A DNA stretch of 40,586 nt from a virus: UHGV virus genome UHGV-0211075, one strand, 5' to 3'. The translations under genes were made by a program, and so were the position numbers. A model generated the notes under the pieces. That model was given only the letters and a program-made list of their open reading frames with translations. It was not told the DNA's origin and ran no database searches. Shown one piece after another: positions 4,637-37,800 of this stretch (positions within the stretch are counted from its first letter, which is position 1; each line of letters begins with the position of its first letter).

Positions 4637-4671
4637 GTTGTCTCGTGCATGGGGTCGTGAAACTCGACCCC

Positions 4672-5116
4672 ATCCGCAAGACCGGGAGCTACTCAGCAGC
4701 CACCCTCGCCCCCGCGGAGCAACTGCAGATCCGCAAGGCCATCTCGGCGCGCGCCCTACGCCCGCTTTCAGGTCGCAAAGTATGACCAGATCCGAAGCGA
4801 GGATCTTCAGACCGCTCTCGACTTCATCGCAACCTGCGAGGTAAAGCTCCCCGCGCTCGTAGATAAAAACTGCATCACGCTCTCAAGAGACGAGATGGAA
4901 CGTATCAGAACCCTCGTCTACTACAAAAAATATCTCTTCCGCAGGCAGCTTGACCTTGTCTATCAGATCCTCGTTGCTGTCCAGTCTCCAGAGGCGCCGC
5001 GCTTCTACGAAATGATGAACGAGGCAAACATGAATGAGGTCGAAAAGATCCTCGACCACCACGACATGGCCGTAAAGGATTTGCCGTGCTATAGGTACCT
5101 GGTGGCGCAACACTAA
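4672..5116 (+). pseudogene. Deleted, frameshifted Bro-N/ORF6C-type antirepressor
   Basis: IRKTGSY (end of Bro-N) at 4672; frame changes at about 4757 into YARFQVAKYDQI, which continues into ORF 4895..5116. Confidence 0.7.
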
Positions 5117-5166
5117 GCGCATCAAAACCACAGCCCTCTTACCCGCCAGAAGAGGGCCTACGGGCT

Positions 5167-5670: not shown

Positions 5671-5672
5671 TT

Positions 5673-6839: not shown

Positions 6840-6980
6840 ATCAGGCCTCCATACCCGATTATGCTCTTGCTTGCCCCGCTCCGCCAAAGCCCCTCTGCTA
6901 GACCTGTTTTTAATCCAATCGTTTAGCTAAATCTCCGGCACTTGGTCGGTAATACCGCTGGAGCTTAAAGCGCTGCCAGT

Positions 6981-8342: not shown

Positions 8343-8389
8343 AACGCTCAATCTCCGTAATCAAATGTTTTTAAATAAAAAATACGGTT

Positions 8390-8804: not shown

Positions 8805-11800
8805 ATGCGCACACAGAAAAAATGCACAAGGTCTTCACACTTCAGGATAACCACTATAGCTATCGCTGTTGCTTCGTCTTTTGCCATGACGCCGGCTTGG
8901 GCGGCCCCTGCTACCAACCCCCCTGGGAACGGTGTAGGAATTGCTATAGGCTCAGGAAGCACAACCGATACTTACGCCAAAAAACAAATAGCTATTGGGG
9001 TTAATTCCAAAACGATTTCTGATGGCTCTGCCCCAAATGATAGTGCCATTGCTATTGGCGCAGGGGCTCATACCTATAACGAATTGGGACGACGCGTTGC
9101 TGCCGTTTCTTTTGGAAAACAGCATGCAGATTACACTGGGGGAATTGCAATCGGTGCTAATACCTATGCGATTACAACAGGAACCAGCATTGGCCAGCGT
9201 GACTACGTAGGAGCCATGGGGGATATAACCGTTTCTAACTCGAATCGCGACATTCTCCAGTACGCTCCTGGTGCAACATCATTGGGAAGTAATGCCTATG
9301 CAGGAGGTACCCTTTCAACAGTTCTTGGCGCTTATAACATTGCGACCAGTGGATACAATGGCACAGGGGGGGGTAACTCTCTTTCCTATGCGGCACAAAA
9401 TTTTGGGTCCACTATTGTCGGTACATTGAATACCAACGAATCCGCCACAGTTCGTGCACCCTTTATGAGTACCAGTTATTCCGGCATTGCAAATAGCACT
9501 GTAGGTATCGCTAATCGAACGTACAATGCAAACGGCGCCTTGATTTTCGGTGCAGGCAACGAAATTACCAATTCAGTCGTAAAGATCTCCTCCGTTAGTT
9601 CTAGCACTCAAACGGCCTCTGCCTCTGTTAATGAGCTTGCAGGGAACTTGCGCACCGCAATTCACAATGACGAAGGCGGCTCAACTCTTGCTATCGGCGG
9701 CGGCAACATTGCCGATTACACCCAGGCCTCTCAGCTGATCGGCGTTAACAATACGCTCAAAGGCTCGTCCAGCTCCGTAAGCCATTACAACGCGCTGAAT
9801 GGCTACAAGAACACGGCGACCAACGTTCAGCATGTGACTGTTATTGGCTCTTCCAACACTGTTACAGACGGTGAAAGCAATATCGTTGCTGGTGACAATC
9901 ATAAGCTCACAGGAGCAAGCAAATCAGTCATCATAGGCTCTTCAACCGAGAACAAAGAAGTTACAAAGAGCAATGTCGTTGTAATTGGCCAAGATGCCGA
10001 TATCTTCCAGGAGGGTGATGTCGCACTTGGTAGCGGCTCTACTGCAGCACAAGTGGAGACAACCACCAATATAACCATTAGAGGCACTTCGTACAATTTC
10101 GCTGGCACTTCTCCGACTAGTACAGTTAGCGTTGGTTCTGCAGGCAAAGAACGCACAATTACAAACGTTGCCGCGGGGCGTATTAGTGCCGCTTCAACTG
10201 ACGCCATCAATGGCAGCCAATTGTTTGCCGTCACTTCTGCGTTGGATACTCTCTCTACATCTGCTGGTGCCCATTACTACTCTGTAAAGAGCTCAAACAC
10301 TGGAGCAGATTCTAACTATGATAATGATGGCGCCACTGGCACTGATAGTATTGTTCTGGGTATCGCCTCAAAAAATTCCGGTAACAACAGTACCGTTATC
10401 GGCAATATGAACTCTCTGACTGGAATAAAAAACGGTGTCAATAACAGCATTGTCGTTGGCCAACGCTTAGAGGTTGACGGCACACACAACGCTGTCTTTG
10501 GCACAGATTACGCAAATTATGATAATAAGCTGACCAAGGTCGTGGGCAATCAAAACACCGTTATCGGCGTTGGTAATCTTGTTGGCTATACAGCCGTTCA
10601 AAACGGAACGCAATGGACTTATACAAAGTGGGGAGATAGCGGTTCAGACCAAAACGTAGCTGTTGGATTGAACAATACCGCTAATGGTGGAAGTATCGCT
10701 GTAGGTACTTCGTCCGTAGTTGATTCTCTGGGAGTTTCCTTGGGGCACGGAAATACCGTTATCGGTCCTGACGACAATGGCGGACAATGGGGAGTTGCCA
10801 TAGGCAATAAGCTCACTGTTTCTGGTGAAAACGCAGTTGCTGTAGGGACGGAGTCCACCGCCAAGGGAGATTGGACTGTTGCCGTGGGTTCTAACGCTTC
10901 AGCAGAGAAGACTTACGATATTGCTATTGGCAAAAAGGCTTCTGCCACGGGAGGGTGGTCTACTGCATTAGGGGCATCTGCTAGAGCCAGTGCCCAAACC
11001 TCTACAGCGCTTGGGTACAGAGCTGAAGCACCCGTTAATAACGGTGTTGCTTTAGGCTCCTTCAGTGTCGCCAACACTGAAGCTGGTGTTGCTGGCTACG
11101 ACCTTTCGACCGGCGCGGCATCTACAGAAACTTCAGTTGCTTGGAAATCAACAGCAGCAGCCGTCTCAGTCGGTGAGGTTGATAATGGTATAACTCGGCA
11201 GATTACGGGGGTGGCGGCGGGCTTGAACGACACCGATGCTGTCAATGTGGCACAGCTTAAGAAAGCGGCATCCGCGGCAACCACCAATGTCAACACAACC
11301 GATCCGAACATGACAGTGACGGAACAGCCGGCTGATTCCCACAATTACACGATTGGGCTGAATAAGAACCTCACCGGCATGGAAAGCGCGGAGTTTGGGG
11401 CTGACGCCGCAAAGACGACTATCTCTGCTGGTGGCGTAACCATCGTCAAGGACAGCACAACGGTAAGCCTTAAATCCAATGGACTAGATAATGGCGGGCA
11501 AACCATCAAGAATATAGCTGCTGGCGAAAACGACACTGATGCGGTTAACCTCTCGCAGCTGAAGAATTCCGTTACGAAGGTGGAATCTACCAGCCAGGGC
11601 TATATCGATATCACAACACGGAAGGAAAATGCCTCAACCAATACCGGGGCAACCATCTACTCCGTGGGACTGTCTGCTGATGCCAAAACCGCGATCACGA
11701 ATGCCAATCATTATCTGACGGCTGATGGGATCAATGCCCAGAACCAAAAGATAAAGAATGTTGCCCCCGGGACGATTTCCGCGGCGTCTACTGATGCTGT

Positions 11801-12311
11801 GAATGGCAGCCAGTTGTATCAGACAAATCAGGCGGTTCAGCACAACTCTGATGATATTTCCAAACTGTATAACCGCAGCGCGGAACTTAATCGCAAGATC
11901 TATCGTGCTGGCGCGCATGCGGCTGCTCTTGCCGCACTGCATCCGCTTGACTTCGATGAAAATCATCTGGTATCCGCCTCTCTTGGCCTTGGTCAATACC
12001 ACAGCCACGGAGCGGTCGCTCTCGGTATTTTCGCCCGCCCGACGGAGAACTTTATGGTCAGCCTGGGAGGATCAATCTCCTCTGGCAGTGATGTGATGGG
12101 GAATCTCGGCGTGCATTATCGCTTTGGAGGCGACAGCGTGCGGGTGAACAAAGCGGAACTTACTCAGCAGGTAAGCACTCTCAAAGCTGAAAACCGGGAT
12201 CTGTCAGCAAAATTGGCTTCTTCCAACTCAAAGCTGGAAGCCGCTACGTCAAAGATTGACTCTCTGATGGCAAGGATCCACGCTATCGAAGCCAAACTTA
12301 ATATGAAGTAA
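8805..12311 (+). CDS. YadA-like trimeric autotransporter adhesin
   Basis: Signal peptide (AWA/A), IAIG/VAVG head repeats, DAVNxxQL necks, anchor AAALAALHPLDFD...GVHYRF, then coiled coil. Confidence 0.93.
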   Translation: MRTQKKCTRSSHFRITTIAIAVASSFAMTPAWAAPATNPPGNGVGIAIGSGSTTDTYAKKQIAIGVNSKTISDGSAPNDSAIAIGAGAHTYNELGRRVAAVSFGKQHADYTGGIAIGANTYAITTGTSIGQRDYVGAMGDITVSNSNRDILQYAPGATSLGSNAYAGGTLSTVLGAYNIATSGYNGTGGGNSLSYAAQNFGSTIVGTLNTNESATVRAPFMSTSYSGIANSTVGIANRTYNANGALIFGAGNEITNSVVKISSVSSSTQTASASVNELAGNLRTAIHNDEGGSTLAIGGGNIADYTQASQLIGVNNTLKGSSSSVSHYNALNGYKNTATNVQHVTVIGSSNTVTDGESNIVAGDNHKLTGASKSVIIGSSTENKEVTKSNVVVIGQDADIFQEGDVALGSGSTAAQVETTTNITIRGTSYNFAGTSPTSTVSVGSAGKERTITNVAAGRISAASTDAINGSQLFAVTSALDTLSTSAGAHYYSVKSSNTGADSNYDNDGATGTDSIVLGIASKNSGNNSTVIGNMNSLTGIKNGVNNSIVVGQRLEVDGTHNAVFGTDYANYDNKLTKVVGNQNTVIGVGNLVGYTAVQNGTQWTYTKWGDSGSDQNVAVGLNNTANGGSIAVGTSSVVDSLGVSLGHGNTVIGPDDNGGQWGVAIGNKLTVSGENAVAVGTESTAKGDWTVAVGSNASAEKTYDIAIGKKASATGGWSTALGASARASAQTSTALGYRAEAPVNNGVALGSFSVANTEAGVAGYDLSTGAASTETSVAWKSTAAAVSVGEVDNGITRQITGVAAGLNDTDAVNVAQLKKAASAATTNVNTTDPNMTVTEQPADSHNYTIGLNKNLTGMESAEFGADAAKTTISAGGVTIVKDSTTVSLKSNGLDNGGQTIKNIAAGENDTDAVNLSQLKNSVTKVESTSQGYIDITTRKENASTNTGATIYSVGLSADAKTAITNANHYLTADGINAQNQKIKNVAPGTISAASTDAVNGSQLYQTNQAVQHNSDDISKLYNRSAELNRKIYRAGAHAAALAALHPLDFDENHLVSASLGLGQYHSHGAVALGIFARPTENFMVSLGGSISSGSDVMGNLGVHYRFGGDSVRVNKAELTQQVSTLKAENRDLSAKLASSNSKLEAATSKIDSLMARIHAIEAKLNMK

Positions 12312-12619: not shown

Positions 12620-12806
12620 ATGGATAGCTCCACGGTAATCAGCAGGATTAAAGCGGATGGCTGGAGGCTCCAGAGCGTGAAAGGTGATCATCACAATTTC
12701 AAAAAAAGCCGGTTTTCAGTTCATCGTGACGATCACTCACCCGCGCAAGGATGTGCCAATCGGGCAACTGAAAGACATATCCAAGAAGTCAGGCATAAAA
12801 TTTTAA
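12620..12806 (+). pseudogene. hicA: HicA toxin frameshifted in an A7 run
   Basis: Removing one A at 12701-12707 gives a 61-aa HicA: ...DGW...KGDHHNFKKAGFQFIVTITHPRKDVPIGQLKDISKKSGIKF. Confidence 0.88.
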
Positions 12807-12872
12807 GCCAGTTGGTCGGGCGAGGGGTCTTCCCTCGTCCGTTTTCTCGCACAAGAACAACGGAGGCAGTAA

Positions 12873-13259
12873 ATGCGTTACCCGTGCGCGATCGAAACAG
12901 GAAACGGCGTTTATGGTGTAATCTTTCCCGACCTTCCCGGATGCTACCCCTCTGGAGAAACCCTAGAGGACGCGTTCAAGGATGCTAAAGAGGCTGCCGA
13001 GTCGTGGATGGACGCCATGGCTGATGAAGGTCTTGAAATTCCAGCTCCATCTGCCATGGATGATGTCGTGAAGAATCCTGATTACAAGGGCTGGGTCTTC
13101 GGCTCGGTTGACATTGATATGTCCAAAATCTCAGACAAGGCCGAGAGAGTGAACATCACCCTCCCGAAACGCGTTCTGAGGCGGCTGGACAACCTCGCCA
13201 AGGAGTCCGGGGATTCCCGTTCTGGGTATATTGCTCACCTTGTCCTTTCGGCCTCATAA
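12873..13259 (+). CDS. hicB: HicB antitoxin
   Basis: YGVIFPDLPGC.. GETLEDA; C-terminal RHH (RVNITLP...SRSGYIA). Confidence 0.93.
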   Translation: MRYPCAIETGNGVYGVIFPDLPGCYPSGETLEDAFKDAKEAAESWMDAMADEGLEIPAPSAMDDVVKNPDYKGWVFGSVDIDMSKISDKAERVNITLPKRVLRRLDNLAKESGDSRSGYIAHLVLSAS

Positions 13260-13294: not shown

Positions 13295-13753
13295 CTACTG
13301 ATGAGAAACAGCATCCTTATCCGCGGCTACTCTTGTAAGAAGCTCTGCACCCTCCCCAGCCAGTTCTGCGCCTTCTCCGAGTAGGCTTTCGCATCGGGCG
13401 AGGCGCTCTTGAGTACGGTCTCCGGTATCTCGGGCGATTTGCAGATCACTCTTGGCTCTGGTGTCTGCGGCGTCGCGCACCCGGACAGCAGTAACCCGCA
13501 CAGCGCGAGCGTCAGATAAAGCCTTGTCTCGCGCGGCAAGCGCATCAGCCAATTGTCTTGATTGTTTCTCATAGCGTTCCTGCGCCTCCTTTTCTACCGC
13601 CCTGGTCTGCTTCTGCCAATCAGATTTAAGCTCGCTGATCTGAGCTTCATACTTCTCCGCCGTCGAGGATCTCCCCCTGGAGTACCCCCAGAACGCAGAC
13701 GCTATCAAAGCGCCAATGATGACGCCGGTAATGACTAGCCCCCTTTTCCCCAT
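13295..13753 (-). CDS. Inner-membrane spanin (Rz-like)
   Basis: N-terminal TM plus long coiled coil, downstream of endolysin. Confidence 0.8.
   Translation of the reverse strand: MGKRGLVITGVIIGALIASAFWGYSRGRSSTAEKYEAQISELKSDWQKQTRAVEKEAQERYEKQSRQLADALAARDKALSDARAVRVTAVRVRDAADTRAKSDLQIARDTGDRTQERLARCESLLGEGAELAGEGAELLTRVAADKDAVSHQ
13327..13545 (-). CDS. Outer-membrane lipoprotein spanin (Rz1-like), embedded in Rz
   Basis: Lipobox LLLSGC, Pro-rich, alternative frame inside Rz; start codon uncertain. Confidence 0.78.
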   Translation of the reverse strand: MRLPRETRLYLTLALCGLLLSGCATPQTPEPRVICKSPEIPETVLKSASPDAKAYSEKAQNWLGRVQSFLQE

Positions 13754-13839
13754 ACTTGCCTCTATAAAAACTCAATCAGCTTCTTGAAGAGCTACCCAAA
13801 AGGGAGCCCCTGCCCTCTGCAACCTTGCTATAATGCTTC

Positions 13840-13925
13840 GCGTGAGGTTTATTTCCTTACCGTGGTTTTATCAAATCAGTCGATTGGCCTCCCCGGAAGA
13901 GCACACGCTTTCCCGGGGCTTTTTT
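13840..13925 (+). ncRNA. Candidate orphan small RNA 1
   Basis: TGcTATAAT at 13826-13834; anti-SD TTTCCTTA; hairpin CCCCGGAAGAG..CCGGGG + T run. Confidence 0.55.
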
Positions 13926-13970
13926 ATATCATCAGGCAAACCTGGGCCATTAATATAGCTATAATGGCTG

Positions 13971-14041
13971 GGACGAGAACTTTCTCCTTTTTGCCCTACG
14001 TCCTCGCTTCTCGTCATCCCCCGGCTTTTGCCGGGGGTTTC
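13971..14041 (+). ncRNA. Candidate orphan small RNA 2
   Basis: TATAAT at 13960-13965; GACGAGAA/TTCTCGTC stem enclosing TTTCTCCTTTTT; hairpin CCCCCGGC-tttt-GCCGGGGG. Confidence 0.5.
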
Positions 14042-14050
14042 TGTTTTCGG

Positions 14051-14224
14051 TTATTTCAAAGCAAGCACGATTTGAACAATCGTATAGACAAGCCCTGTAG
14101 CACCAGCAAACGCAAGAGCTGAATACTTAACCCCAGTGGCTACGCCTCTGAAAAATGCCTCTTTAAGTTCCATATCTCTCATACGCTGCCCCAAATTTTC
14201 ATTGCGCTTGATATAATTTTTCAT
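14051..14224 (-). CDS. 57-aa small protein with C-terminal TM (cassette A)
   Basis: MKNYIK...GVKYSALAFAGATGLVYTIVQIVLALK; AAGG upstream. Confidence 0.7.
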   Translation of the reverse strand: MKNYIKRNENLGQRMRDMELKEAFFRGVATGVKYSALAFAGATGLVYTIVQIVLALK

Positions 14225-14254
14225 GTACAAACCTTGTGCGTACAAATTGCCATT

Positions 14255-14287
14255 CCCCGGAAGAGTTCCCGCTCTTGCCGGGGATTT
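14255..14287. repeat. 33-bp hairpin repeat, copy 1
   Basis: CCCCGGAAGAGTTCCCGCTCTTGCCGGGGATTT, identical to 14517-14549. Confidence 0.95.
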
Positions 14288-14482
14288 TTACAGAGATCGG
14301 ATAAAACCGATGACGCCCAGCACGCCCCCAATAACGGCGCAGGCGACCAGCACGAGTTCTTTCCAGAAGTGGAAACGCTCCTTTTTGTATTCGCTGATAG
14401 CCGCTTGCTGAGCCTGTTTCAACTTCTGTTCATCCATAAAAGCCTCTAGCTTATCTATTCTTTCTTTGGTATCATCTCTCAT
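14288..14482 (-). CDS. 64-aa small protein with C-terminal TM (cassette B)
   Basis: MRDDTKERIDKLEAF...LVLVACAVIGGVLGVIGFIRSL; an upstream ATG at 14497 is possible. Confidence 0.72.
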   Translation of the reverse strand: MRDDTKERIDKLEAFMDEQKLKQAQQAAISEYKKERFHFWKELVLVACAVIGGVLGVIGFIRSL

Positions 14483-14516
14483 GTAGATGTGGTCCATCTA
14501 TGTGTGTCGATTAATG

Positions 14517-14549
14517 CCCCGGAAGAGTTCCCGCTCTTGCCGGGGATTT
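14517..14549. repeat. 33-bp hairpin repeat, copy 2
   Basis: Identical to 14255-14287, 262 bp away. Confidence 0.95.
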
Positions 14550-14552
14550 CTT

Positions 14553-15017
14553 TTAACTGAGGAAGAGCTCCTTCTCTGCCTCTCGTCTCCTTACCAACCC
14601 CGGAAGCTCCCTCCCTCCCGCTCGCGCCCAACGCTTGAATTCATACCCCGCATTAATTACCTTGCCGGCATTAAAAAGTTTGAGGAGAGTAGATCTGCGG
14701 AGTGCCCCAGCACCACAGTTGTATGCAAAATCCAACAAAGCGATGAACTGCCCTTGCGTTACCGCGACCCTGACAGATCGGGACAGCACATCACGAAGAC
14801 GGTAAAGCTCAGACTCCAGAAGCTCGTCTGCCTCCTCTTGAGTAATCTTTATGTTCCTGATGACAGGGTTCCCAGATGCCAGGCGTGTAGAGCCATAACC
14901 CACAGTCCATACCCCCGCAGGATCCCGGTAGGAAGCCAGCCGACACCCCTCGTTCGACTTAATGAAGGGGACCGCAATTGCCGGGTCCCACACCGAAAAT
15001 TCTTTCTTTTCAGCCAT
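14553..15017 (-). CDS. Endolysin, GH24 lysozyme
   Basis: EGCRLASYRDPAGVWTVGYG, FAYNCG, LPGLVRRREAE. Confidence 0.95.
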   Translation of the reverse strand: MAEKKEFSVWDPAIAVPFIKSNEGCRLASYRDPAGVWTVGYGSTRLASGNPVIRNIKITQEEADELLESELYRLRDVLSRSVRVAVTQGQFIALLDFAYNCGAGALRRSTLLKLFNAGKVINAGYEFKRWARAGGRELPGLVRRREAEKELFLS

Positions 15018-15156
15018 GATCTCTCCTTATTTTGTCAGCCAAAGGACAAGATTCGGCCCGCACACGCCTTTCAATTTCCTGCTCTTTCTGCATATCCATA
15101 AGCACACCAACCTCTTGCTTTAGTTTTTGAATTTCAGCTATACTGGCGTTGTGCAT
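15010..15156 (-). pseudogene. Truncated cassette ORF (48 aa, TM segment apparently deleted)
   Basis: AGGA RBS; MHNASIAEIQKLKQEVGVLMDMQKEQEIERRVRAE; an out-of-frame LVLWLTK-stop remains. Confidence 0.5.
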
Positions 15157-15218
15157 AAGTTCCTGTGTGTAAAGTGGAATAAAAAAGCCCTCGGGAGTTC
15201 GCTTCTCTCGAGGGTTTT
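15115..15218 (+). ncRNA. Antisense promoter plus small RNA over the leader of ORF 15156
   Basis: TTGCTT-18 nt-TATACT (15115-15144); hairpin GCCCTCG..CGAGGGT with A6 and T4 flanks at 15181-15218. Confidence 0.55.
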
Positions 15219-15246
15219 CGTTTGATGGGGAGGATTCCCTATCCTT

Positions 15247-15726
15247 CTATTCGTCTCTGTGCTGCTGGTGAATCTCTCCCCCGCTCACCACATCTGACGC
15301 CATCACCTCTGACCGCTCTTCCATCGCTTTCAGCATCTTGCGGACCGGCGCCGGGATGATTGATCCATACCCCATGCGCTCAATGTTCTCGAGAATCGAC
15401 CCGAAGTCGTTCAGGCAGAAAGCAAAGACCGCCGCATCCCTGACACTGACGAAAGGTATAACCGAAGTGATATCCAGCCCATGGCAAAGTGCCACGAGGA
15501 TCAGCATGACGATCTTTTTGGTGATGCCAAGGAACCCCGTACGGGAATTCCACTGCCCGGTCTTCATCGCGGCATAAGTACCGCTCAAATAATCGACGAC
15601 GATAAAAACAAACAGCCATTCAATCGCGTCATCGATCGGGCCAAAAAGAAAGGAGCACAAGGCTCCCAGAATCCCGCCAACCGCCAGAAAAACGCGGGAT
15701 GAAAAATCAGGAATCAGATCCACCAT
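15247..15726 (-). CDS. Holin (phage holin 4_1 family)
   Basis: VDYLSG...SRTGFLGITKK...NDFGSILEN...IP; TM segments. Confidence 0.9.
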   Translation of the reverse strand: MVDLIPDFSSRVFLAVGGILGALCSFLFGPIDDAIEWLFVFIVVDYLSGTYAAMKTGQWNSRTGFLGITKKIVMLILVALCHGLDITSVIPFVSVRDAAVFAFCLNDFGSILENIERMGYGSIIPAPVRKMLKAMEERSEVMASDVVSGGEIHQQHRDE

Positions 15727-15752
15727 AAGCGCAATAGTCTCTGCTTATTGTC

Positions 15753-15781
15753 TTGACACGCTGTAACTTATAAGTTACGCT
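15753..15781 (+). promoter_or_regulatory. Promoter with perfect palindromic operator
   Basis: TTGACA-17 nt-TACGCT; GTAACTTATAAGTTAC at 15763-15778. Confidence 0.8.
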
Positions 15782-15809
15782 GCCCAGCCATGATAATTAA
15801 GGGGTTGCC

Positions 15810-16139
15810 ATGATAAATACGGAAGGCCTTAAAGATTTTGACCCTGCTGAATATCTGGATGATGCCCCTTCAATTGCCGCCTATCTGGATGAGGCGTTCA
15901 AAACAGAAAATCCTGAGTACATTTCCCACGCTTTGGGTGTGGCCGCCAAAGCCAAAGGGATGACGGATATCGCTCAAAAGAGCGGTATCCGCCGTGAACA
16001 GCTGTATCGGTCTCTTAACTCGAAAGGGAACCCGACGCTTCAAACCCTTCTCCCTGTTATGAAAGCATTAGGCGTAACGATTGGGGTATCGGTAAAAGGT
16101 ACTCAAAAAGCCCCTGCCTACCCGGGGAGACCGGCATAA
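15810..16139 (+). CDS. Addiction-module antidote (HI1420-type HTH antitoxin), orphan
   Basis: FDPAEYL...IAAYL...ALGVAAKAKGMTDIA...REQLYRSL...GNPTL. Confidence 0.9.
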   Translation: MINTEGLKDFDPAEYLDDAPSIAAYLDEAFKTENPEYISHALGVAAKAKGMTDIAQKSGIRREQLYRSLNSKGNPTLQTLLPVMKALGVTIGVSVKGTQKAPAYPGRPA

Positions 16140-16197
16140 GTACCGATCTCCTCCTCTGTCCCCTTCATCTGCGCTGTGATTTCAGTGTGGACATGAC

Positions 16198-16929
16198 TTA
16201 CGCGCCAAAGTCCGCAATGAAGAGGCTTTTTTTAATGCGCATCCCCTCTTCCTCAGAGGTTGCAAATAAGACCACCTCGCCGCTAGCGGGGGCTGCGAAG
16301 CTGATGGTGGCCCCCTCAAAAGTCACTTCAATGGGGGAGCCGATACCACTACTACTAAGTACTACGGTATAGGCCAAGCTCCGCATAATAGCCGCGTCTG
16401 CTTCCGATAAAGTAGCCTTACATGTACCTGAGTCTTGGGATAAAGTGTAGTTGGTATAGTTGTCTCTACCAATAGCCGCACCGGTAAAAACTTGTAGAGT
16501 TGAATCACTCGCTATAGCGTAACTATCCGCTTTTTGGATAGCCTCAGTTGCCGAGACCACATAATCCTTATCAAGGACCACCGTTGCAGCAATACCTGCT
16601 TGTTCTTCCCCGTTAATAACCAAGTTCCCAGGCCAATACCCCGCAAGGCCATCCACGTAAAGTCGCACATCCAGGATATCTGGATCAAATACCACGTCGG
16701 CTTTATCAGAGCTATAGAGGGATTTAGCCAAGGAAGAAACGTTTGCGGCAATTGATTGATGCTCCGTTTGCTTAAGCGTGATGGTGTGCCCCGCGGTGCT
16801 CGAAGCCGTCAGAGCAGTGATAGCGTCAGCCATATCAGAGGGCTTATAAGTTGTCGTACCCCCATTCTTACCGCGAATAGCGTTTGCGATCGCTGTGTAA
16901 TACGTCGGATCTGTCAGAACTTTCGTCAT
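16198..16929 (-). CDS. Putative tail-fibre-associated protein
   Basis: AIANAIRGKNGGTTTYKPSDMADAI motif; position in fibre cluster. Confidence 0.6.
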   Translation of the reverse strand: MTKVLTDPTYYTAIANAIRGKNGGTTTYKPSDMADAITALTASSTAGHTITLKQTEHQSIAANVSSLAKSLYSSDKADVVFDPDILDVRLYVDGLAGYWPGNLVINGEEQAGIAATVVLDKDYVVSATEAIQKADSYAIASDSTLQVFTGAAIGRDNYTNYTLSQDSGTCKATLSEADAAIMRSLAYTVVLSSSGIGSPIEVTFEGATISFAAPASGEVVLFATSEEEGMRIKKSLFIADFGA

Positions 16930-16932
16930 GAT

Positions 16933-17244
16933 TTAGTACCCCGTGGAATCGCCGTCAGTGATTGCGGAAATCGCTGTAGTAATCGCCGCGTCCGCTTCAG
17001 ACTTAGTGTAGTAGTTAGAGAGATCTACCGACGCACCAGAAACCGCGGAGGCTACTTTGCTGTCAACCTCAGCCTTGGTGTAGGCGTCCGTGATGCCGTA
17101 GCCCGCGAGCGTTGTGGCTTTCTTCGCGTACTCCGCGAGTGCTGAAGAGAGAGCATAGTTATCGAGCTCCGCCTCAATCGTTGACTTGCACGCATTAAGC
17201 GCTTCTTTGACCTTTGCTTTGAGGTCTATAAAAGTTACCGTCAT
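16933..17244 (-). CDS. Tail-fibre repeat protein
   Basis: TTLAGYGITDAYTK and DLSNYYTKSE repeats. Confidence 0.7.
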   Translation of the reverse strand: MTVTFIDLKAKVKEALNACKSTIEAELDNYALSSALAEYAKKATTLAGYGITDAYTKAEVDSKVASAVSGASVDLSNYYTKSEADAAITTAISAITDGDSTGY

Positions 17245-17246
17245 AG

Positions 17247-18350
17247 TTACACTCCTTTGATGAATTCATCGCATGCCTCGTAAATCGAGGTCATGAATGA
17301 GTTGAAAACTTCGACTGTGGTATAGGATTCGGGGGCTATTGATGCGGCTTTCTCTGCACTCGCCTTGGCTTGCGTTGCGAAGCCTTCCGCCGCCGATGCC
17401 TGGGTGGTAGCTGTTGCCGCAGAGGCGCTTGCCGCGGTTTTGGACGCCGCCGCCGATACTGAAGAAGACTGTGCCGCGTTCGCTGAATCAGACGCCGATT
17501 CTGCCGATGCCGCCGCATTCGATTCACTTGAAGCCGCGGCAGTCTGGGACGCTTTCGCCGCGGTTGCAGATTTGCTGGCCGCAGTTGCGCTAGCAGAAGC
17601 CGCGCTCACAGAGGCATCAACGGCATCCGTTGCCGTCTTCTGAGCCGCTTGAACCGCAGAAACGGACGTCTTCTGAGCATTGCCAACAGCCTCAACCGCC
17701 GCGTCTTTGGCATCAGAAATGGCCTGCTTGCCATCGCTGATGGTCGAGGAAGCCGAAGCCGCGCTTGCCGCCGCATTGTCAGCATATGTCTTGGCGTTCT
17801 TTTCGCTCGTCTTGATTGCGTCAAGGATATCCTGAGCCTGAGCCTTGACGTAATTCGCTTGCTCGCCGCCAGTGGCATCGAGCTGAGCAATCAACTCTTC
17901 GAGCTTCGTTTGAAGAGATGCCTTGCCCGCCTCAATGTCGCTGTTGACAGCTTCGCCCTTGGCGGTGATGGAGGAAACCTGCTTGCTCCCCTCATCCTGA
18001 ATCTGCTTGATCTTCTCAGCAGTTTCAGAAACAACGCCATTTGCCGCAGCTTCCGCGCGATCAGCCGCAGCCTCAGCCTGATTCTTGAAGGCCTCGGCTC
18101 TAGAAGCCCGTTCCTTGAAATCCGCGAAGACATCAGCGAGCTGATGTAGATTTGTGATGGACGGCTCAAGGCCAGCCTGCTCGATCACGGCCATGAATTC
18201 TTCCGTGATCATGTGATACCAGTAGGCGCCGATCACAGTAGGCATCTTCTTCGTTGCCTTGTTGCCGTCCTGAGGGTATTGCGTAGTGATCGGATTTTTG
18301 GGCGGAGAAGGCGGCGTGTCAGATGCGTCTGAGTAATAAAGTCTCTTCAT
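17247..18350 (-). CDS. Ala/Ser-rich tail-fibre-like protein
   Basis: N-terminus resembles that of 18610..19362; Stf-like AAAS repeats; GAGG RBS at ATG 18350. Confidence 0.75.
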   Translation of the reverse strand: MKRLYYSDASDTPPSPPKNPITTQYPQDGNKATKKMPTVIGAYWYHMITEEFMAVIEQAGLEPSITNLHQLADVFADFKERASRAEAFKNQAEAAADRAEAAANGVVSETAEKIKQIQDEGSKQVSSITAKGEAVNSDIEAGKASLQTKLEELIAQLDATGGEQANYVKAQAQDILDAIKTSEKNAKTYADNAAASAASASSTISDGKQAISDAKDAAVEAVGNAQKTSVSAVQAAQKTATDAVDASVSAASASATAASKSATAAKASQTAAASSESNAAASAESASDSANAAQSSSVSAAASKTAASASAATATTQASAAEGFATQAKASAEKAASIAPESYTTVEVFNSFMTSIYEACDEFIKGV

Positions 18351-18358
18351 CTTTACCT

Positions 18359-18481
18359 CTAAAAGAAAATGCTTTTCATCTTCTCGGCAATAAGCAGGAT
18401 CCCGTAAGCGAGAACAAAGATCGTCACTCCCCACCGCAGCACTCGCAGATAAGCAGGAAGTTCCTTGTCTGGCTTCATCAT
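18359..18481 (-). CDS. 40-aa membrane protein (not in ORF track)
   Basis: GAGG RBS; MMKPDKELPAYLRVLRWGVTIFVLAYGILLIAEKMKSIFF; an in-frame ATG also at 18532. Confidence 0.65.
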   Translation of the reverse strand: MMKPDKELPAYLRVLRWGVTIFVLAYGILLIAEKMKSIFF

Positions 18482-18556
18482 GGCCTCTCTCAGCGGCAGA
18501 AGTGCCGCCAGCACGGGTATAATTTCATTCATCGGGAACCGTTTCTTCTCGATAAC

Positions 18557-18592
18557 AAAAACCCCGCTCAGATGGCCGTCTGGGCGGGGCTT
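18557..18592. terminator. Hairpin with CAGATG-G-CCGTCTG core
   Basis: AAAAACCCCGCTCAGATGGCCGTCTGGGCGGGGCTT; related to 21591-21627. Confidence 0.75.
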
Positions 18593-18609
18593 GTCTTTCT
18601 ACTAAAAGC

Positions 18610-19362
18610 TTAAATATGAATGCACGGGAGCAAAACAAGAGCCGGAGGCTGCACTGTGCCTGACCGTCCATAAATCCCGTTGGAGCGAGAGGCGTCGAAG
18701 TGATACCGCCCCTCATCACCGCCGGATCCGCCCTTCAGACCACGGCTTGTGACATCTGACACGTAGAAAGAACCGTCTGCCGAGGCGTTCCCACGAGTCC
18801 AGTTCAGGAAGGTGCCGGTAATGTTCGGAAGGCCGGCGCTTCTCTGCTCGCCAACGTTGCTCTGCCCGCCCCACACCGTCTTGTCGATCAGATATGGCAG
18901 ATTGAATGTCGTGCTCCCGTTACCCGAGCCATATTTGGTCCCGATCACAGAGAACAGGTTCGCGTAGGCCGAACGGCTCACCGCCTGGCCGTTGCATATC
19001 AACCAGTTTGCGTTCGGAGAAGAAGAAGTAGGAAAGAACATGATGGCGCCGGAGGGAACCACTTCAACTTGAGCAACTTTTGCCTGGATCTGGGCAACAG
19101 CGTCTGTCAGAGCCTGATTCACAGTCTTGATTTGGGCTTTGATAGCTGCGTCAAGCTGAGCATTGTCGTGCCGGTCCGGCGTGATGCCGCCGCCCTTGAT
19201 CGCATTGATCAGCTCCATCATGACCGCGTTGTACCAGATCGCACCTGGGATGGTCGACGCTATACCGCCACCGGACGATCCGTCTGTCGGATATCCCGGG
19301 TCAACGTCATCGGGCACGTTGGGCGCGTTCTGCACGGCGCCGGAAAGGAAAATCCTGTCCAT
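18610..19362 (-). CDS. Tail fibre protein with collar domain
   Basis: GYPTDG..PGAIWYN N-terminus; WLICNGQAVSRSAYANLF..GNGSTTFNLP. Confidence 0.88.
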   Translation of the reverse strand: MDRIFLSGAVQNAPNVPDDVDPGYPTDGSSGGGIASTIPGAIWYNAVMMELINAIKGGGITPDRHDNAQLDAAIKAQIKTVNQALTDAVAQIQAKVAQVEVVPSGAIMFFPTSSSPNANWLICNGQAVSRSAYANLFSVIGTKYGSGNGSTTFNLPYLIDKTVWGGQSNVGEQRSAGLPNITGTFLNWTRGNASADGSFYVSDVTSRGLKGGSGGDEGRYHFDASRSNGIYGRSGTVQPPALVLLPCIHI

Positions 19363-19985
19363 TACGCATTGTCTCCTTCAAAACTGTAGTATCCGAAGTA
19401 CAACTCGGTGTGGGCCGGCTTGTAGCGCTGAATCAGGCACTCAATAAGCCTGTCTCCCCACCACGCGAGCGCCTCGTTTACCGGGCCAAGCGTGGTGTGA
19501 TACCCCATGACGGACCCGGCTCCGGTCATCACGTCTACTCGCCAGACGTGCCTCCAGTTCTCGCCGCAGACCGCATCCATTGAGGTGGACTGAACGGAGT
19601 GCTGGCGGAACTCATCAATGACGATTCGATACCCAAACATTTCGGCCAGCTCAAAGAAGTAGGACCGATCCTGTCTGCCAATGTTCTTGATCTTGTACAT
19701 GAGCAATGTGCGCAGCGTCGTCTGATTGGCACTGGACCAGGCTCGAATGCAGTCGTCAGGCAATCCCCAGTCGTCCAGCCAGTTCTCAAACGTCTCCACC
19801 GCGAAGCGAGGATCAGCTTCCCGCATCAGCGCCCGCACCCGGGAATCAACGCGGCTGAACTCCTCGGCCCAAACCTCGATCATCATTCCCATGAGGGATG
19901 TAGCATCACCCCTCGGCCACGCTGGGCCCGGAGGAAGAAGCTGCTTTAGCATCCGGGAATACTCTTTCTGCGTCGTCAGTTCCAT
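19362..19985 (-). CDS. Baseplate protein, YmfQ/DUF2313 (Mu gp48-like)
   Basis: LLPPGPAW...WGLPD...ECLIQRYKPAHT. Confidence 0.88.
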   Translation of the reverse strand: MELTTQKEYSRMLKQLLPPGPAWPRGDATSLMGMMIEVWAEEFSRVDSRVRALMREADPRFAVETFENWLDDWGLPDDCIRAWSSANQTTLRTLLMYKIKNIGRQDRSYFFELAEMFGYRIVIDEFRQHSVQSTSMDAVCGENWRHVWRVDVMTGAGSVMGYHTTLGPVNEALAWWGDRLIECLIQRYKPAHTELYFGYYSFEGDNA

Positions 19986-21013
19986 GTGATCGTCCCCAGC
20001 GTGAGAAGCTCATTTGTTCCCGCTGTCGGGTTGGCAGTCGGAGACACGAGGACATGGTCAACCTCTCCCGCCGCGGCTGAAATGGCCGCTCTTATGTGCG
20101 AAAGATAGATGCTCCTCGAGGGTTCGCTCTCCTTCATGAACAGGTCCTTAAGCTCGGCTTCAACCGCCGCCCTGACGTCAGACGTGTCCGGGGTGAGCGT
20201 GCTGATTTCGATATTGACCGCCTTGAGCGTCGGACCCATGACGGTTACGTCAGCCGTCACCGGGCGTTTTGAATCGATATAGGACTGAACCTGCTTCACC
20301 ATTTCTGACGTCGGGGAAATGTCTGCCAAATCGTCGCAGACAAACCTCACAACTACTGTTCCGTCCCCATTTTCAAGCGGATAGCACCAGGCTCTTGTCA
20401 CTCCCGGTACAGCCAGGGCCCACTGGACATAGTCAGACGAAGTACCTCCATGCGGCGTTTCCCGCTGCCGTGCAAGAACACGGGCTCGCAGGTTTTCGTC
20501 GTCCTCCGCATCAGCGCCCCCCGCAATACCTTGGGACTCAGCCTCGGAAATAACGCCTTCGATTGGCGAGATCAGCGTGAGCGTATCGCCGGATTCGATG
20601 TTGCCCGCTTCTCCCGCCACCAGGGCCTCAACGGAGGCAACACCCTCCGCATTCGGAGCGACCGTCACCTGGAACTGCTGCTCGTCTCCGCCCTGCAGAA
20701 TTGTCCCTACGGGTATGTTCACAACGCCGTCCTGAAAGCTGAATTTCACCGTTCCAGAGGCTTTTGAAGCGGCCTTTCTTGTGATCCCGAAGATTGAAGC
20801 ATGGCGGTCGAGATGCTCGGAGTCCGCCGTGTCGACGAAAATCTGTTTGGAGACGTACTCAATGAAGCCGTGCAGCTCATGGCTCGCTCCTGCCAGCACC
20901 CGGCTGTAAACGGTCGCATTGCTTCTGCGCACCTGCGGAACGCTCAGGCGCGACTGGATTCCCGAGCTTATGCGGGAAATCAGCTCCCGCAGTGTTGGTC
21001 TAACAAATGCCAT
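19976..21013 (-). CDS. Baseplate J-like protein (Mu gp47)
   Basis: FVDTAD.EHLDRHA, GGADAE, GGTSSDYVQWA..VPGVTRAW. Confidence 0.92.
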   Translation of the reverse strand: MAFVRPTLRELISRISSGIQSRLSVPQVRRSNATVYSRVLAGASHELHGFIEYVSKQIFVDTADSEHLDRHASIFGITRKAASKASGTVKFSFQDGVVNIPVGTILQGGDEQQFQVTVAPNAEGVASVEALVAGEAGNIESGDTLTLISPIEGVISEAESQGIAGGADAEDDENLRARVLARQRETPHGGTSSDYVQWALAVPGVTRAWCYPLENGDGTVVVRFVCDDLADISPTSEMVKQVQSYIDSKRPVTADVTVMGPTLKAVNIEISTLTPDTSDVRAAVEAELKDLFMKESEPSRSIYLSHIRAAISAAAGEVDHVLVSPTANPTAGTNELLTLGTITWN

Positions 21014-21429
21014 CATTCGCTCCAAATGTCTTGAAACCTCATGCCGATCAGGTCTGCGCCGCTCGGTTTCTGAATCGTAACCGTTAGATTCAGCTGGTCG
21101 GCACCTCCCCGTTCTGCGGAAACGTCTACGCTTTTGGCAATGCCGTCATCGATCATCCACTGCAGCGCCGCCGCGGCGTAGTCTTGAGCTTTAAGCAGCG
21201 TCTCCTGTGTCACCTTCGCTCGAGACAGCAGCCAAAGCTTCGATCCGAAATGGTCGCCCGTGTCATCCGCATAGGTGTCGCCCCACCAGCCCTGCTTCGA
21301 GTCCCCTGGGAGCTCGTCTGAATCCGAAGCCCGCGCCCATGAAAAAAGGCTGTTGTACACAGCCCTTCGCAAATCGTCATCGCAGAAATCTGAGAGCGTT
21401 GATTCAACGCCGTTGAGCATCAGAATCAT
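21013..21429 (-). CDS. Mu gp46-like baseplate protein
   Basis: SLFSWARA...GWWGD...GSKLWLLSRAK...ALQWMIDDG. Confidence 0.88.
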   Translation of the reverse strand: MILMLNGVESTLSDFCDDDLRRAVYNSLFSWARASDSDELPGDSKQGWWGDTYADDTGDHFGSKLWLLSRAKVTQETLLKAQDYAAAALQWMIDDGIAKSVDVSAERGGADQLNLTVTIQKPSGADLIGMRFQDIWSE

Positions 21430-21590
21430 TTGACCAAGCTCCACGAAAAGGACGCGGCGACCATCACCAGACAGACGATAAAGACCCACGGAAGGACTCT
21501 TCCCCACAGCCGAAGCTTTTGATCCGGGTCCAGAAGTTTCATGATCACCATTGCTATAATTTCCAGCGCCCTCAATACGATTGAGGTCAT
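21426..21590 (-). CDS. Small membrane protein, 38-54 aa (not in ORF track)
   Basis: MKLLDPDQKLRLWGRVLPWVFIVCLVMVAASFSWSLVK from 21542 (upstream ATGs at 21551 and 21590); stop overlaps gp46 start as ATGA. Confidence 0.62.
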   Translation of the reverse strand: MTSIVLRALEIIAMVIMKLLDPDQKLRLWGRVLPWVFIVCLVMVAASFSWSLVK

Positions 21591-21627
21591 AAAAAAGCCC
21601 AGCCAGATGCCCGTCTGACTGGGTTTT
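21591..21627. terminator. Bidirectional hairpin with CAGATG-C-CCGTCTG core
   Basis: A6-GCCCAGCCAGATGCCCGTCTGACTGGG-T4. Confidence 0.75.
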
Positions 21628-21656
21628 ACTTTTCCTCGGCGGTAAAGAGCGCAGAT

Positions 21657-21809
21657 TTACCGCATGAAATAAGAAACGCAAAAAATCACGCCTACAAGCA
21701 GAACAACAAAGATAAATACCGTCACGCCACCAGCCACAAAGCCTTTGGCAAAAATCTTCATAAAAAGTCTTTGCGCTTCATCTTCTGCCAGTTTGTCGTA
21801 ATCAATCAT
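21657..21809 (-). CDS. 50-aa small protein with C-terminal TM
   Basis: GAGGTG RBS; MIDYDKLAEDEAQRLFMKIFAKGFVAGGVTVFIFVVLLVGVIFCVSYFMR. Confidence 0.72.
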   Translation of the reverse strand: MIDYDKLAEDEAQRLFMKIFAKGFVAGGVTVFIFVVLLVGVIFCVSYFMR

Positions 21810-21816
21810 CTTCACC

Positions 21817-22350
21817 TCACATCTTTTGATCCGGGCTAACGCCGCCGTTATGCGTATGTCCGTTGTAGGTGTCCCTGATACTCTGCATCCGGCCCTTCGA
21901 GTCGTAAATCTGGGCCTTGCCATGAATGTCCCCATTCACGATCAGCTTTCCCGTGACTGTGGTCTCAGGAGCGTCAATCGTCACAGAACCAGAACTCTTT
22001 ACTGTCACCGGCGAATCCTTGCCCTCGACAACGATCCCGGATCGGGAGAAGTAAACCTTTCGCCCCAGATCATCGAAAACGCAAACTTCGCCGTCCTTGA
22101 GCCCCGTGGGGCGGTAGCGTCGGTCGGTGATGCAGAATGCGATCGTGTGCTCTCTGTCTCCGGCAAGGGATGCGGCAAGCACCTCGGCTCCTGTCTTGGC
22201 CTCAGAGGTGAATCCATACGGTTCAAAATGCTCGACATCGTCCCTCAGGTCATCGGCGAAGAGCTGAACCTGCACCGTCCGCATCTTTCGGGCGGCGTTC
22301 TTCGCCATCAGAACACCCCTTGTAATCAGATCAATCAAACCGCTGCTCAT
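21817..22350 (-). CDS. Baseplate spike (Mu gp45/gpV-like)
   Basis: EHFEPYGFTS, DRRYRP.GL..GEV, C-terminal YNGHTH. Confidence 0.92.
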   Translation of the reverse strand: MSSGLIDLITRGVLMAKNAARKMRTVQVQLFADDLRDDVEHFEPYGFTSEAKTGAEVLAASLAGDREHTIAFCITDRRYRPTGLKDGEVCVFDDLGRKVYFSRSGIVVEGKDSPVTVKSSGSVTIDAPETTVTGKLIVNGDIHGKAQIYDSKGRMQSIRDTYNGHTHNGGVSPDQKM

Positions 22351-37312: not shown

Positions 37313-37395
37313 TACGTTTCTTATGGGTGCAAAAAGGATGGCCATCGGCCACCCCTAAATATGCAACTGGCGTCTTTCGCTTACTGATATTTCAT

Positions 37396-37424
37396 AGTTT
37401 ACGCCTTATCATCTTTGAAATCAA
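37396..37424 (-). promoter_or_regulatory. pR'-like late promoter
   Basis: TTGATT-17 nt-TAAACT at the end of the Q-like gene, about 85 nt before a terminator. Confidence 0.68.
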
Positions 37425-37800
37425 CAGTTTTATCTCTGGCGTAAAAATCGAGGATGTTCTTGAGCATCACGCTCGCGTGTCGAGTCTCCTCATAAAAACT
37501 ATGTCTGTTTAATCCCAAAGCCCTTCCCAGACGTTTTACACGGATTCCCGGTCTAAGGTAAAGCACGCACATCATGAGGCGGTATTTTTCTGGATAAAGA
37601 GGCGAACAGAGGGCTTTTTCTACCAGTGCAGCGTCGGCAGGGTCTATCGGGTCATAGCTTTTTGAATCATCCTGATAAAAATCCTCCGGTGCTCCTAAGA
37701 GAGCAATCAGTTTCGCCAGCATGGGAACATGGACCTTAGGCCTGTCTCTGTAGTATCTGGCCCAGTTAGTGAGCCGGAAATCGAGTTCCTGATCGATCAC
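37399..37800 (-). CDS. Putative late antiterminator (Q-like)
   Basis: RLTNWAR, DPADA.LVEKA, C-terminal HTH; position before late promoter; GTG start. Confidence 0.65.
   Translation of the reverse strand: MIDQELDFRLTNWARYYRDRPKVHVPMLAKLIALLGAPEDFYQDDSKSYDPIDPADAALVEKALCSPLYPEKYRLMMCVLYLRPGIRVKRLGRALGLNRHSFYEETRHASVMLKNILDFYARDKTVDFKDDKA

Follow-up and report, generated by a model that had tools for sequence, protein, structure and literature searches.

The virus genome UHGV-0211075, a stretch of 40,586 nucleotides (nt) that we refer to throughout as the window, holds a temperate phage whose late genes (terminase, portal, HK97-type head, contractile tail, baseplate and tail fibres) lie on the minus strand. 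Within this late operon the plus strand carries seven copies of a compact layout, a -10 promoter box followed by a terminator-like hairpin, and at five of these sites the layout overlaps the start of a small minus-strand open reading frame (ORF). This seven-site layout is real. Our best reading is that the units are antisense locks resembling type I toxin-antitoxin systems, with RNA production, translation and toxicity all being predictions. The features are listed in Table 1.

Seven predicted antisense units in the late operon

An earlier note on this DNA had described seven plus-strand -10 boxes, four of them preceded by TG, each leading through 30-60 nt into a terminator-like hairpin, and closer analysis bears this out. 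Five boxes read TATAAT, that of unit 4 reads TATCAT and that of unit 5 TATACT, and a TG stands two bases 5' of the box at exactly four sites (units 1, 3, 4 and 7). A terminator-like stem begins 37-56 nt after each of the seven boxes and is followed by 5-7 T within 9 nt. The seven predicted RNAs, each made up of a 5' hairpin (weak at site 5) and the terminator, have folding z-scores of -2.8 to -4.8. Using a detector of the layout (a -10 box, then a terminator 55-110 nt on) we found 7 sites in 13300-22350, whereas 100 block-wise dinucleotide shuffles averaged 0.29 and never exceeded 2; since the sites were already known when the detector was devised, this comparison overstates the significance. 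Over the whole window it returned the 7 sites, one duplicate and one stray, all on the plus strand, and no hits on the minus strand.

The minus-strand ORFs at the five sites encode 57, 64, 48, 57 and 46 amino acids (aa), in agreement with the earlier count of five ORFs of 38-64 aa, four with a membrane segment and one truncated, and two sites without an ORF. Four of the five products are hydrophobic (best 17-residue Kyte-Doolittle mean 1.85-2.7); in the 48-aa ORF5 an 80-nt deletion, by comparison with the 69-aa allele of relatives, has removed the membrane segment. Sites 1 and 2, which have no ORF, are decayed units. By inspection, unit 2 matches intact units of loci L014 and L062 in stem and position and has lost the start codon, and a unit-1 variant in L080 retains ATG where the window has ACG. 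The ORFs had been described as fed by these leaders; the overlap stands and the geometry is corrected, in that the ORFs start inside the 5' hairpin of the RNA, 9-15 nt beyond the -10 box's first base, and the box itself lies within ORF codons 3-6. The 5' end of the RNA would therefore extend over the Shine-Dalgarno sequence and the spacer into the start codon, covering that codon at least in part.

Units 1-4 have a U-tract on the plus (antisense) strand only and no plus-strand gene upstream, so that their hairpins could terminate only a transcript from their own -10 box; the T-tail of the unit 4 terminator abuts the endolysin stop codon. Units 5-7 have bidirectional terminators that are good in the late direction, which places a late-direction terminator directly before the ORF. 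A distant homologue of ORF3 in L165 has an identical layout, and the core of ORF4 shows a nonsynonymous to synonymous ratio (pN/pS) of 0.14 against its G004 homologue. ORF7 starts with ATG in 14 of the 17 copies counted.

Table 1. Units, small ORFs and late-control features of the window.
Feature	Position	Strand	Description	Basis or remark
Likely Rz/Rz1 pair	13295-13753	-		Assigned by position and anatomy
Unit 1	13829..13924	+	Extended -10 box; predicted ~84-nt two-hairpin RNA with pyrimidine-rich loop; plus-only terminator (stem 13891-13918); ORF start decayed	
Unit 2 relic ORF	13924..13974	-	16 codons, hydrophobic, without canonical start codon	Sequence; comparison with L014 and L062
Unit 2	13960..14043	+	-10 box; predicted ~72-nt RNA; plus-only terminator (stem 14018-14037); decayed relative of a family-B unit	
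ORF3	14051..14224	-	57 aa; charged N-terminus, C-terminal membrane helix	
Unit 3	14212..14289	+	Extended -10 box in ORF3 codons 3-5; predicted ~66-nt RNA over ORF3 ribosome-binding site; terminator (stem 14255-14283)	
ORF4	14288..14482	-	64 aa; coiled-coil-like N-terminus, C-terminal membrane helix; second in-frame Met at codon 16	
Unit 4	14470..14551	+	Extended -10 box in ORF4 codons 3-5; predicted ~70-nt RNA; terminator (stem 14517-14545)	
Endolysin	14553-15017	-		Late operon
ORF5	15010..15156	-	48-aa truncated allele without membrane segment	69 aa in 9/33 relatives
Unit 5	15139..15220	+	-10 box; predicted ~70-nt RNA; bidirectional terminator (stem 15188-15214); between holin and endolysin	
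Holin	15247-15726	-		Late operon
ORF6	18359..18532	-	57 aa; family B; conserved core from internal Met; between two tail-fibre genes	
Unit 6	18518..18595	+	-10 box in ORF6 codons 4-5; predicted ~66-nt RNA; bidirectional terminator (stem 18562-18589)	
ORF7	21426..21566	-	46 aa; family-B-like; CTG start in the window; stop overlaps baseplate wedge gene start	
Unit 7	21555..21629	+	Extended -10 box in ORF7 codons 3-4; predicted ~63-nt RNA; bidirectional terminator (stem 21598-21623)	
Small hydrophobic ORF	21657..21809	-	50 aa; no antisense unit detected	Eighth small hydrophobic ORF
pR'-like promoter and first terminator-like hairpin	37327..37424	-	Promoter with 8/12 consensus matches	Sequence; detector hit
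Q21-like late antiterminator	37399..37800	-		Structure-model match

Two side observations concern the neighbourhood of unit 7. Its -10 box ends in C rather than T in 8/17 copies (L005, L006, L007, L009, L016, L020, L028 and L033), and in the lineage with the C-ending box the C-terminus of ORF7 is less hydrophobic; promoter and peptide may be decaying together there. In L026, L032 and L118 the slot of the eighth small ORF, between the baseplate spike gene and unit 7, holds a different gene of ~120 aa, and a remnant of the end of that gene is present in other relatives.

An independent test on the family-B core

ORF6 and ORF7 belong to an unnamed protein family, here called family B (33 representatives, 76 proteins), with a conserved core that begins at an internal Met; a structure model of one member consists of helices at 2-17 and 25-54 (mean predicted local distance difference test (pLDDT) score 86). 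Test loci were fetched by a DNA pattern of this core alone. The 73 loci obtained (7 viral, 66 metagenome) were reduced by 13 chance matches outside the family and 17 with duplicate upstream sequence to 43 members, which fall into 22 upstream lineages at 80% identity. The search interval for the box was fixed at 27-57 nt above the internal Met, and synonymous codon resampling served as the null.

An antisense -10 box is present in the fixed interval in 18/22 lineages, against 2.1 or 0.8 expected from codon use, and in 0/22 in each of two control intervals inside the core. All 18 box-bearing lineages have a terminator 47-98 nt on, with unrelated terminator sequences, and in 17 of the 18 an in-frame start codon, ATG or GTG, lies 7-15 nt past the box. 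The box falls in differing reading frames between lineages, and the U-tract is antisense-only in 12/17 distant lineages. These results bear on the simplest alternative, that no antisense RNA is made, that the hairpins are processing or terminator elements of the late mRNA and that AT-rich N-terminal codons yield the -10 boxes incidentally. The good late-direction terminators of units 5-7 fit such elements, as do relatives with a terminator alone between holin and endolysin (5/33) and three that keep the unit-6 hairpins without ORF or box; with 18 boxes against 2.1 expected, in different frames, and with antisense-only U-tracts at units 1-4, we nevertheless regard this explanation as extremely improbable. 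Conversely, we consider it highly likely, from the sequence patterns, that the antisense RNAs are real and act on their own leader.

In the 17 lineages with such a start, spacer and start codon are enclosed by the 5' hairpin, often with an anti-Shine-Dalgarno sequence in the loop; the hairpin's z-score is below -1 in 14/17, and the stem sequences are unrelated. A Shine-Dalgarno interaction of -4 kcal/mol or better precedes the long-form start in 10/17 lineages, compared with 18% of control positions. Leaders of different lineages do not align. For two close pairs pN/pS is 0.14 and 0.15 in the cores, 0.31-0.57 in codons 6-16 (uncorrected and near saturation) and about 0.7-1.8 in the promoter codons; coding selection thus appears clear in the cores, moderate in codons 6-16 and absent in the promoter codons.

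The placement of the start codon also weighs on the proposal that the RNAs are trans-acting small RNAs (sRNAs), morons of the EcOnc or Pas type directed at host or phage targets, with the ORFs as independent late genes. Units 1-4 have a common 3' terminator family and variable 5' parts, as described in excerpts for the anti-sRNAs of enterohaemorrhagic Escherichia coli that are convergent to pR' (PMC4104026), and the ORF-less units 1 and 2 expose long pyrimidine loops. The variable 5' part, however, bears an ORF start and ribosome-binding site on its other strand in 17/22 lineages, which a trans role does not need; no seed is conserved across lineages, and searches made without an accessibility model gave no standout target among 38 start regions of the window and no exact match longer than 12 nt elsewhere in it. 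We therefore think the proposal very unlikely. Targeting of the endolysin start by unit 1 in trans was considered separately and rejected: a pairing of 8-10 nt is possible, with no loop covariation with the two endolysin start types and no standout duplex.

Among whole genomes, family B occurs in 8/231 genomes and 5/26 genera of the bacterial family, and the layout is visible in all five genera, one copy being frameshifted after the ATG and one lying beside an assembly gap. The expectation that the layout would be conserved in relatives is thereby upheld, with boxes in most family-B lineages. A single covariance model, as the earlier note had envisaged, is not supported, since terminators and 5' hairpins are unrelated between lineages and there is no single RNA sequence family. 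Across all loci the unit ORFs form nine BLAST clusters of 42-76 aa, some of which are probably remote kin. One family-B unit, in L123 at ~1500-1720, has an upstream start that is out of frame with the core and a short leader ORF that overlaps the internal start; it is either a mok-like arrangement or a disabled copy.

Leader exchange and variation of the arrays

The leaders of L187 and L220, from the terminator through 13 codons, are identical at 98/99 nt and then give way to unrelated cores (10/36 nt). The junction is the internal Met codon, so that one leader is fused in frame to two unrelated proteins; this Met is probably the older start of the gene. In the database protein P0023 the ORF4 N-terminus is joined to a family-B core, and in another genus a homologue of ORF5 differs in its N-terminus, hairpin and terminator and is located in the baseplate region. 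The sharing of a leader by unrelated cores and the recombined parts of ORF4 and ORF5 argue that it is the leader, hidden promoter included, that moves. That ORFs would vary behind conserved hairpins had been anticipated, and this exchange of leaders is one form of such variation.

Another form is seen among close relatives. An endolysin search gave 46 loci, of which 33 at 66-100% identity were taken as close relatives and 26 span endolysin to Rz; these are close kin, and their counts therefore show variation and not independent events. One to five units are present in 23 of the 26 spans, in nine arrangements, and a unit-1-type RNA is the last unit before Rz (or a second endolysin) in all 23. 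One 5' hairpin is found on three different ORFs and another on two, and L049 keeps ORF6 and the unit-6 terminator with an unrelated 5' hairpin. Disabled alleles are frequent: among the 33 loci 19 have a truncated ORF5, 5 a full-length copy that starts with CTG and 4 one that starts with ATG, and 5 lack the ORF. In our model units are reshuffled by recombination in the shared terminators and at start codons; no recombinase tied to the units was found. Target-site duplications, suggested by short repeats around units 6 and 7 of the window, were dropped as a candidate, relatives having partial deletions or other cargo and not clean empty sites.

This variation speaks for RNA-based superinfection exclusion, in which the RNAs of a lysogen would work chiefly in trans: late mRNA from an incoming relative that shares the leader would be their target, and its endolysin, holin, portal or baseplate gene would be silenced. 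The leaders would diversify and accumulate in arrays, like plasmid incompatibility groups. The units sit before essential late genes, their leaders vary in sequence with the structure kept, nine non-empty array types occur among 26 spans and ORF-less RNAs are retained; there is also a precedent in the late-region antisense RNA STnc6030 of prophage BTP1, for which the excerpted account reports phage-specific immunity (PMC7067206). On the other hand, carriage of a unit leaves the phage itself vulnerable, and some sites are empty; the purifying selection seen on the membrane proteins is left unexplained; and the incoming Q-driven mRNA could titrate the RNA just as on induction. The idea is compatible with the antisense locks we favor, and as the main function of the units we consider it unlikely.

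Two insertions were noted beside the arrays. A second lysozyme with an N-terminal hydrophobic segment, similar to signal-arrest-release (SAR) endolysins, lies between unit 1 and Rz in L006-L010, L013, L016, L020-L022, L025, L028 and L033, so that in these two-lysozyme phages the unit array separates the two endolysins. In L003 and L019 a reversed two-gene insertion, of HicB/HicA type by inspection, occupies the same place.

Position in late operons and control of transcription

Sense promoters were sought as -10 boxes matching at 5/6 or better, 40-305 nt upstream, in 18 lineages. None was found in 16/18, which are all 16 late-operon lineages, by a scan that would miss a weaker promoter. In 15/22 lineages the stop codon of the family-B ORF overlaps the following ATG (at -4 or -1), and next in line is an endolysin gene in 9 lineages, a holin gene in 3, a portal gene in 3 (one assigned by identity to a scanned portal), a baseplate wedge gene in 2 and another gene in 5. 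Units in late operons are all in the same orientation.

These facts are awkward for selfish type I modules that would stabilize the prophage by post-segregational killing and use late gaps as safe insertion sites. Their size, hydrophobicity, tandem arrays and antisense layout do fit type I loci, and many copies are decayed; two integrase-adjacent lineages also have a downstream hairpin and a possible sense -10 box. Addiction, however, needs a stable toxin mRNA in the lysogen, and against this stand the missing sense -10 boxes of the 16 late-operon lineages, the late-direction terminators directly 5' of the ORF in units 5-7 and the single orientation of late-operon units. We judge this explanation to be quite unlikely. 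The two exceptions to the promoter scan, L158:2408-2575 and L224:1408-1578, are family-B units beside an integrase and outside the late operon, and may be stand-alone type I modules.

Late control in the window appears to resemble that of lambdoid phages; the names Rz/Rz1, SAR endolysin, pR' and tR' follow the usage for that group. The structure model of the 37399-37800 ORF (pLDDT 69) has phage 21 Q structures as top Foldseek matches (template modelling score 0.55-0.60, probability 0.98-1.0, E 0.18-0.28); scans of the protein against Pfam, NCBIfam and PHROG gave no family. Terminator-like hairpins lie 3' of this ORF after a pR'-like promoter, which itself scores under the threshold of the promoter scan. 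With a Q21-like ORF followed by such a promoter and hairpins, late-gene control is likely to be by antitermination of the lambdoid (Q) type. The earlier note had the ORFs released by antiterminated read-through. The Q21-like fold and the lack of a sense -10 box in 16/16 late-operon lineages favor this release; read-through as such applies to sites 5-7 only, which alone have a late-direction U-tract, so that sites 1-4 need none.

Downstream of the pR'-like promoter, ~320 nt at 37080-37400 on the minus strand hold hairpins in a row, some with plus-strand U-tracts, and form a candidate late-leader RNA region. A 76-aa ORF at 36848-37078 (minus strand) in the late leader has the anatomy of ORF4 and ORF5, with a coiled-coil-like part and a C-terminal membrane helix; it follows a late-direction hairpin, and neither an antisense unit nor a PHROG match was found for it.

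Comparison with known systems

Searches returned no named family, in line with the earlier note's failure to recognize one. Rfam gave 8 matches up to E 5 and none at gathering score, the His_leader match (E 0.05) covering the unit-5 terminator only. The small proteins matched no named family in Pfam, NCBIfam, PHROGs or Protein Data Bank sequences, and the search of annotated phage genomes gave no match. The best ESM Atlas matches (0.89 and 0.76) are hypothetical proteins, and they and one DUF7201 row at 0.87 are leads only; the one strong BFVD match, a 53%-identical phage protein labelled 'ATP synthase E chain', we take to be a family member with an automatic label. No description of the system was found in the open-access literature, a scope without supplements and subscription papers; candidates could be listed in the tables of PMC2887945. 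Three full-length ORF5 alleles, nearly identical to one another, match the PADLOC model SP_VI (retron type VI) at E 2e-4 to 9e-4; the ORF5 homologues of L146 and L176 do not, and no reverse transcriptase is present among the window genes scanned.

Two further identities were tried and found no support. An Fst/Ldr likeness of the ORF5 tail is unsupported, PF13955 and PF13940 exceeding the cut-off in 0/5 unit-bearing genomes with no listed weak match at unit positions. Nor, by the tests run, do these proteins appear to be known holins or antiholins: 16 unit-type proteins gave no holin match, and a separate holin is present in the window and many relatives.

The comparisons that follow draw on excerpts of the cited papers. 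Type I toxins are described as small (about 70 aa or less) hydrophobic proteins with a membrane helix (PMC2887945), and the window ORFs conform in size (46-64 aa) and, in four of five, in hydropathy; the coding selection in the cores of the close pairs (pN/pS 0.14-0.15) and the helical model of a family member fit as well. A predicted antisense promoter and terminator overlap the translation-initiation region, so that the type I logic put forward in the earlier note, a cis-antisense RNA lying across the site where translation of a small membrane protein begins, is supported at the sequence level. A stand-alone locus with its own toxin promoter, typical of type I systems albeit not universal, is not what we see.

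The closest in architecture among the systems compared are listed here with their differences. In aapA3/IsoA3 of Helicobacter pylori a ~80-nt cis-antisense RNA has its -10 box inside the toxin ORF (PMC6733600), and the aapA/IsoA loci share with the phage units this box inside a small ORF, mRNA hairpins that sequester the Shine-Dalgarno sequence, and a small membrane peptide. They differ in that aapA3 is chromosomal and has its own constitutive 225-nt mRNA and one 30-aa peptide family, whereas the phage units have no sense promoter that we could find, ORFs of 42-76 aa in nine clusters, late-operon positions and leader swaps. No homology to AapA/IsoA was found in Rfam, Pfam or NCBIfam, where the presence of such models was unchecked, and the lengths differ. 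The hokW-sokW locus of the Stx2 phage Sp5 likewise encodes a prophage membrane peptide that is held by antisense RNA in the lysogen, released on induction and an aid to lysis and release (PMC8621323); there the hokW mRNA pre-exists, SokW decays and a single Hok-family locus is involved, whereas release of the phage units is inferred from Q-dependent late mRNA, up to seven units occur per prophage and there is no Hok match (no Pfam match for hok/sok, and no Rfam match at gathering score).

Other prophage RNAs share parts of the design. In the Bacillus prophage SPbeta, SR6 is a ~100-nt antisense RNA between the small toxin genes yonT and yoyJ of a polycistronic mRNA, where it overlies the 5' end of the gene downstream and meets the 3' end of the one upstream (PMC5848175); it differs in being a single RNA and in yonT having its own promoter, and the abstract reports no lysis-cassette position or leader swapping. 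STnc6030 of the Salmonella prophage BTP1 is expressed in the lysogen antisense to late genes and gives superinfection exclusion without blocking induction (PMC7067206); it is 500-786 nt long, antisense to structural genes and, in the excerpts, neither modular nor associated with a small membrane ORF. The EcOnc anti-sRNAs AsxR and AgvB are short, lie downstream of and convergent to pR' and have conserved 3' and variable 5' parts (PMC4104026), but act in trans on host sRNAs via Hfq and, as excerpted, cover no ORF start in cis. Finally, sprG1/SprF1 of a Staphylococcus aureus prophage encodes two in-frame membrane peptides that differ by a 13-residue N-terminal extension (PMC10579593, PMC8309996); in this it resembles the phage units with their long and internal starts, where a dual start is presumed, but it has its own promoter and an unrelated sequence.

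Other features of the window

The closest named relatives of the window's baseplate protein (97-98%) sit on Mesosutterella porci contigs, and the host is therefore probably Mesosutterella. The likely Rz/Rz1 pair has no PHROG match. At the prophage end a hicAB pair on the plus strand (12620-13259) has an intact hicB and a hicA that is apparently split by a frameshift (Pfam HicA match only at 12684-12806), and a YadA-type trimeric autotransporter adhesin (8805-12311, plus strand) adjoins this end and travels with the prophage in several viral contigs. An orphan helix-turn-helix (HTH) antitoxin-like gene (PF21716; 15810-16139, plus strand), opposed to the late operon between the holin and tail-fibre genes, has a palindrome beside it at ~15762-15781 and is missing in many relatives. 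An integrase and an HTH/metallopeptidase regulator (4883-8351, minus strand) lie between the prophage tail end and a cI/Sak4/Gam early region (19-4277); the gene order at 19-8351 suggests either two adjacent elements or a permuted assembly.

A model for the units and its implications

The sequence-level case for antisense locks consists of the layout, selection on the -10 box and the proteins, leader swaps, the lack of a detectable sense promoter, and late-operon positions mostly beside lysis genes. We propose that each site is a portable lock in which the -10 box in the first codons would drive a 60-100-nt two-hairpin RNA, presumably made constitutively by the host sigma-70 polymerase. The loop of its 5' hairpin, usually with the anti-Shine-Dalgarno sequence, would pair with the matching loop of the mRNA, block ribosome loading and create an RNase III substrate, and convergent transcription could add interference. 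In the lysogen the lock would quench and destabilize rare late read-through transcripts, leaving the peptide untranslated. Where the stop of the ORF and the start codon of the following gene overlap, the lock would in addition reduce expression of the endolysin or holin that comes next, which would explain the persistence of unit 1 after the loss of its ORF. On induction, Q-driven late mRNA would titrate the RNA and the peptides would enter the inner membrane, where they are most likely to be membrane-disturbing lysis helpers by analogy with HokW of phage Sp5.

Several observations weigh against this model. Four of the 22 family-B lineages have no box (three look deleted and one has a different leader), and the lineages are related, so that counts of them are not independent. 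The Shine-Dalgarno sequence is weak at 7/17 long-form starts, and in 5/17 lineages the internal Met has a good one outside the RNA cover, so that a short form could escape direct blocking. The 5' hairpins reach only -1 to -14 kcal/mol, and alignment-based covariation is weak or misregistered, with compensatory pairs in 1/10, 4/18 and 0/22. Ten of the 22 family-B lineages are not directly before a lysis gene; stop-start overlaps are common in phage operons, so that coupling alone is not special; and the 3/26 endolysin-Rz spans without any unit show that units are dispensable there. No protein homologue with a characterised function was found. The HokW mRNA, as described in excerpt, is present before induction, unlike what we propose for the phage peptides (PMC8621323). 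With these points in view we lean, if only slightly, towards the model as a whole, a cis-antisense lock that quenches late read-through in the lysogen and is overrun on induction.

A more novel reading would see in the units an RNA incompatibility code for prophages. In it a leader module of ~130 nt, made up of terminator, ribosome-binding hairpin, start codon and the 12-20 codons that contain the antisense promoter, is joined in frame to unrelated membrane-protein genes and placed before endolysin, holin, portal or baseplate genes; the array would lock the phage's own lysis genes in the lysogen and, being prophage-specific, would also silence related superinfecting phages or turn into a suicide trap for them. 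We offer this tentatively and expect that it will probably prove wrong.

The units are conserved by layout and not by sequence, which is why they are invisible to Pfam, Rfam and the named PHROG families, and the system is apparently undescribed. If confirmed, it would add a type I toxin-antitoxin-like system, and up to about eight unannotated families of small membrane proteins, to common gut phages of the Sutterella family. It would show that grafting a portable antisense leader in frame to new genes can create type I-like systems, and would offer a testable answer to how a prophage shields its lysis genes from leakage of the late promoter.

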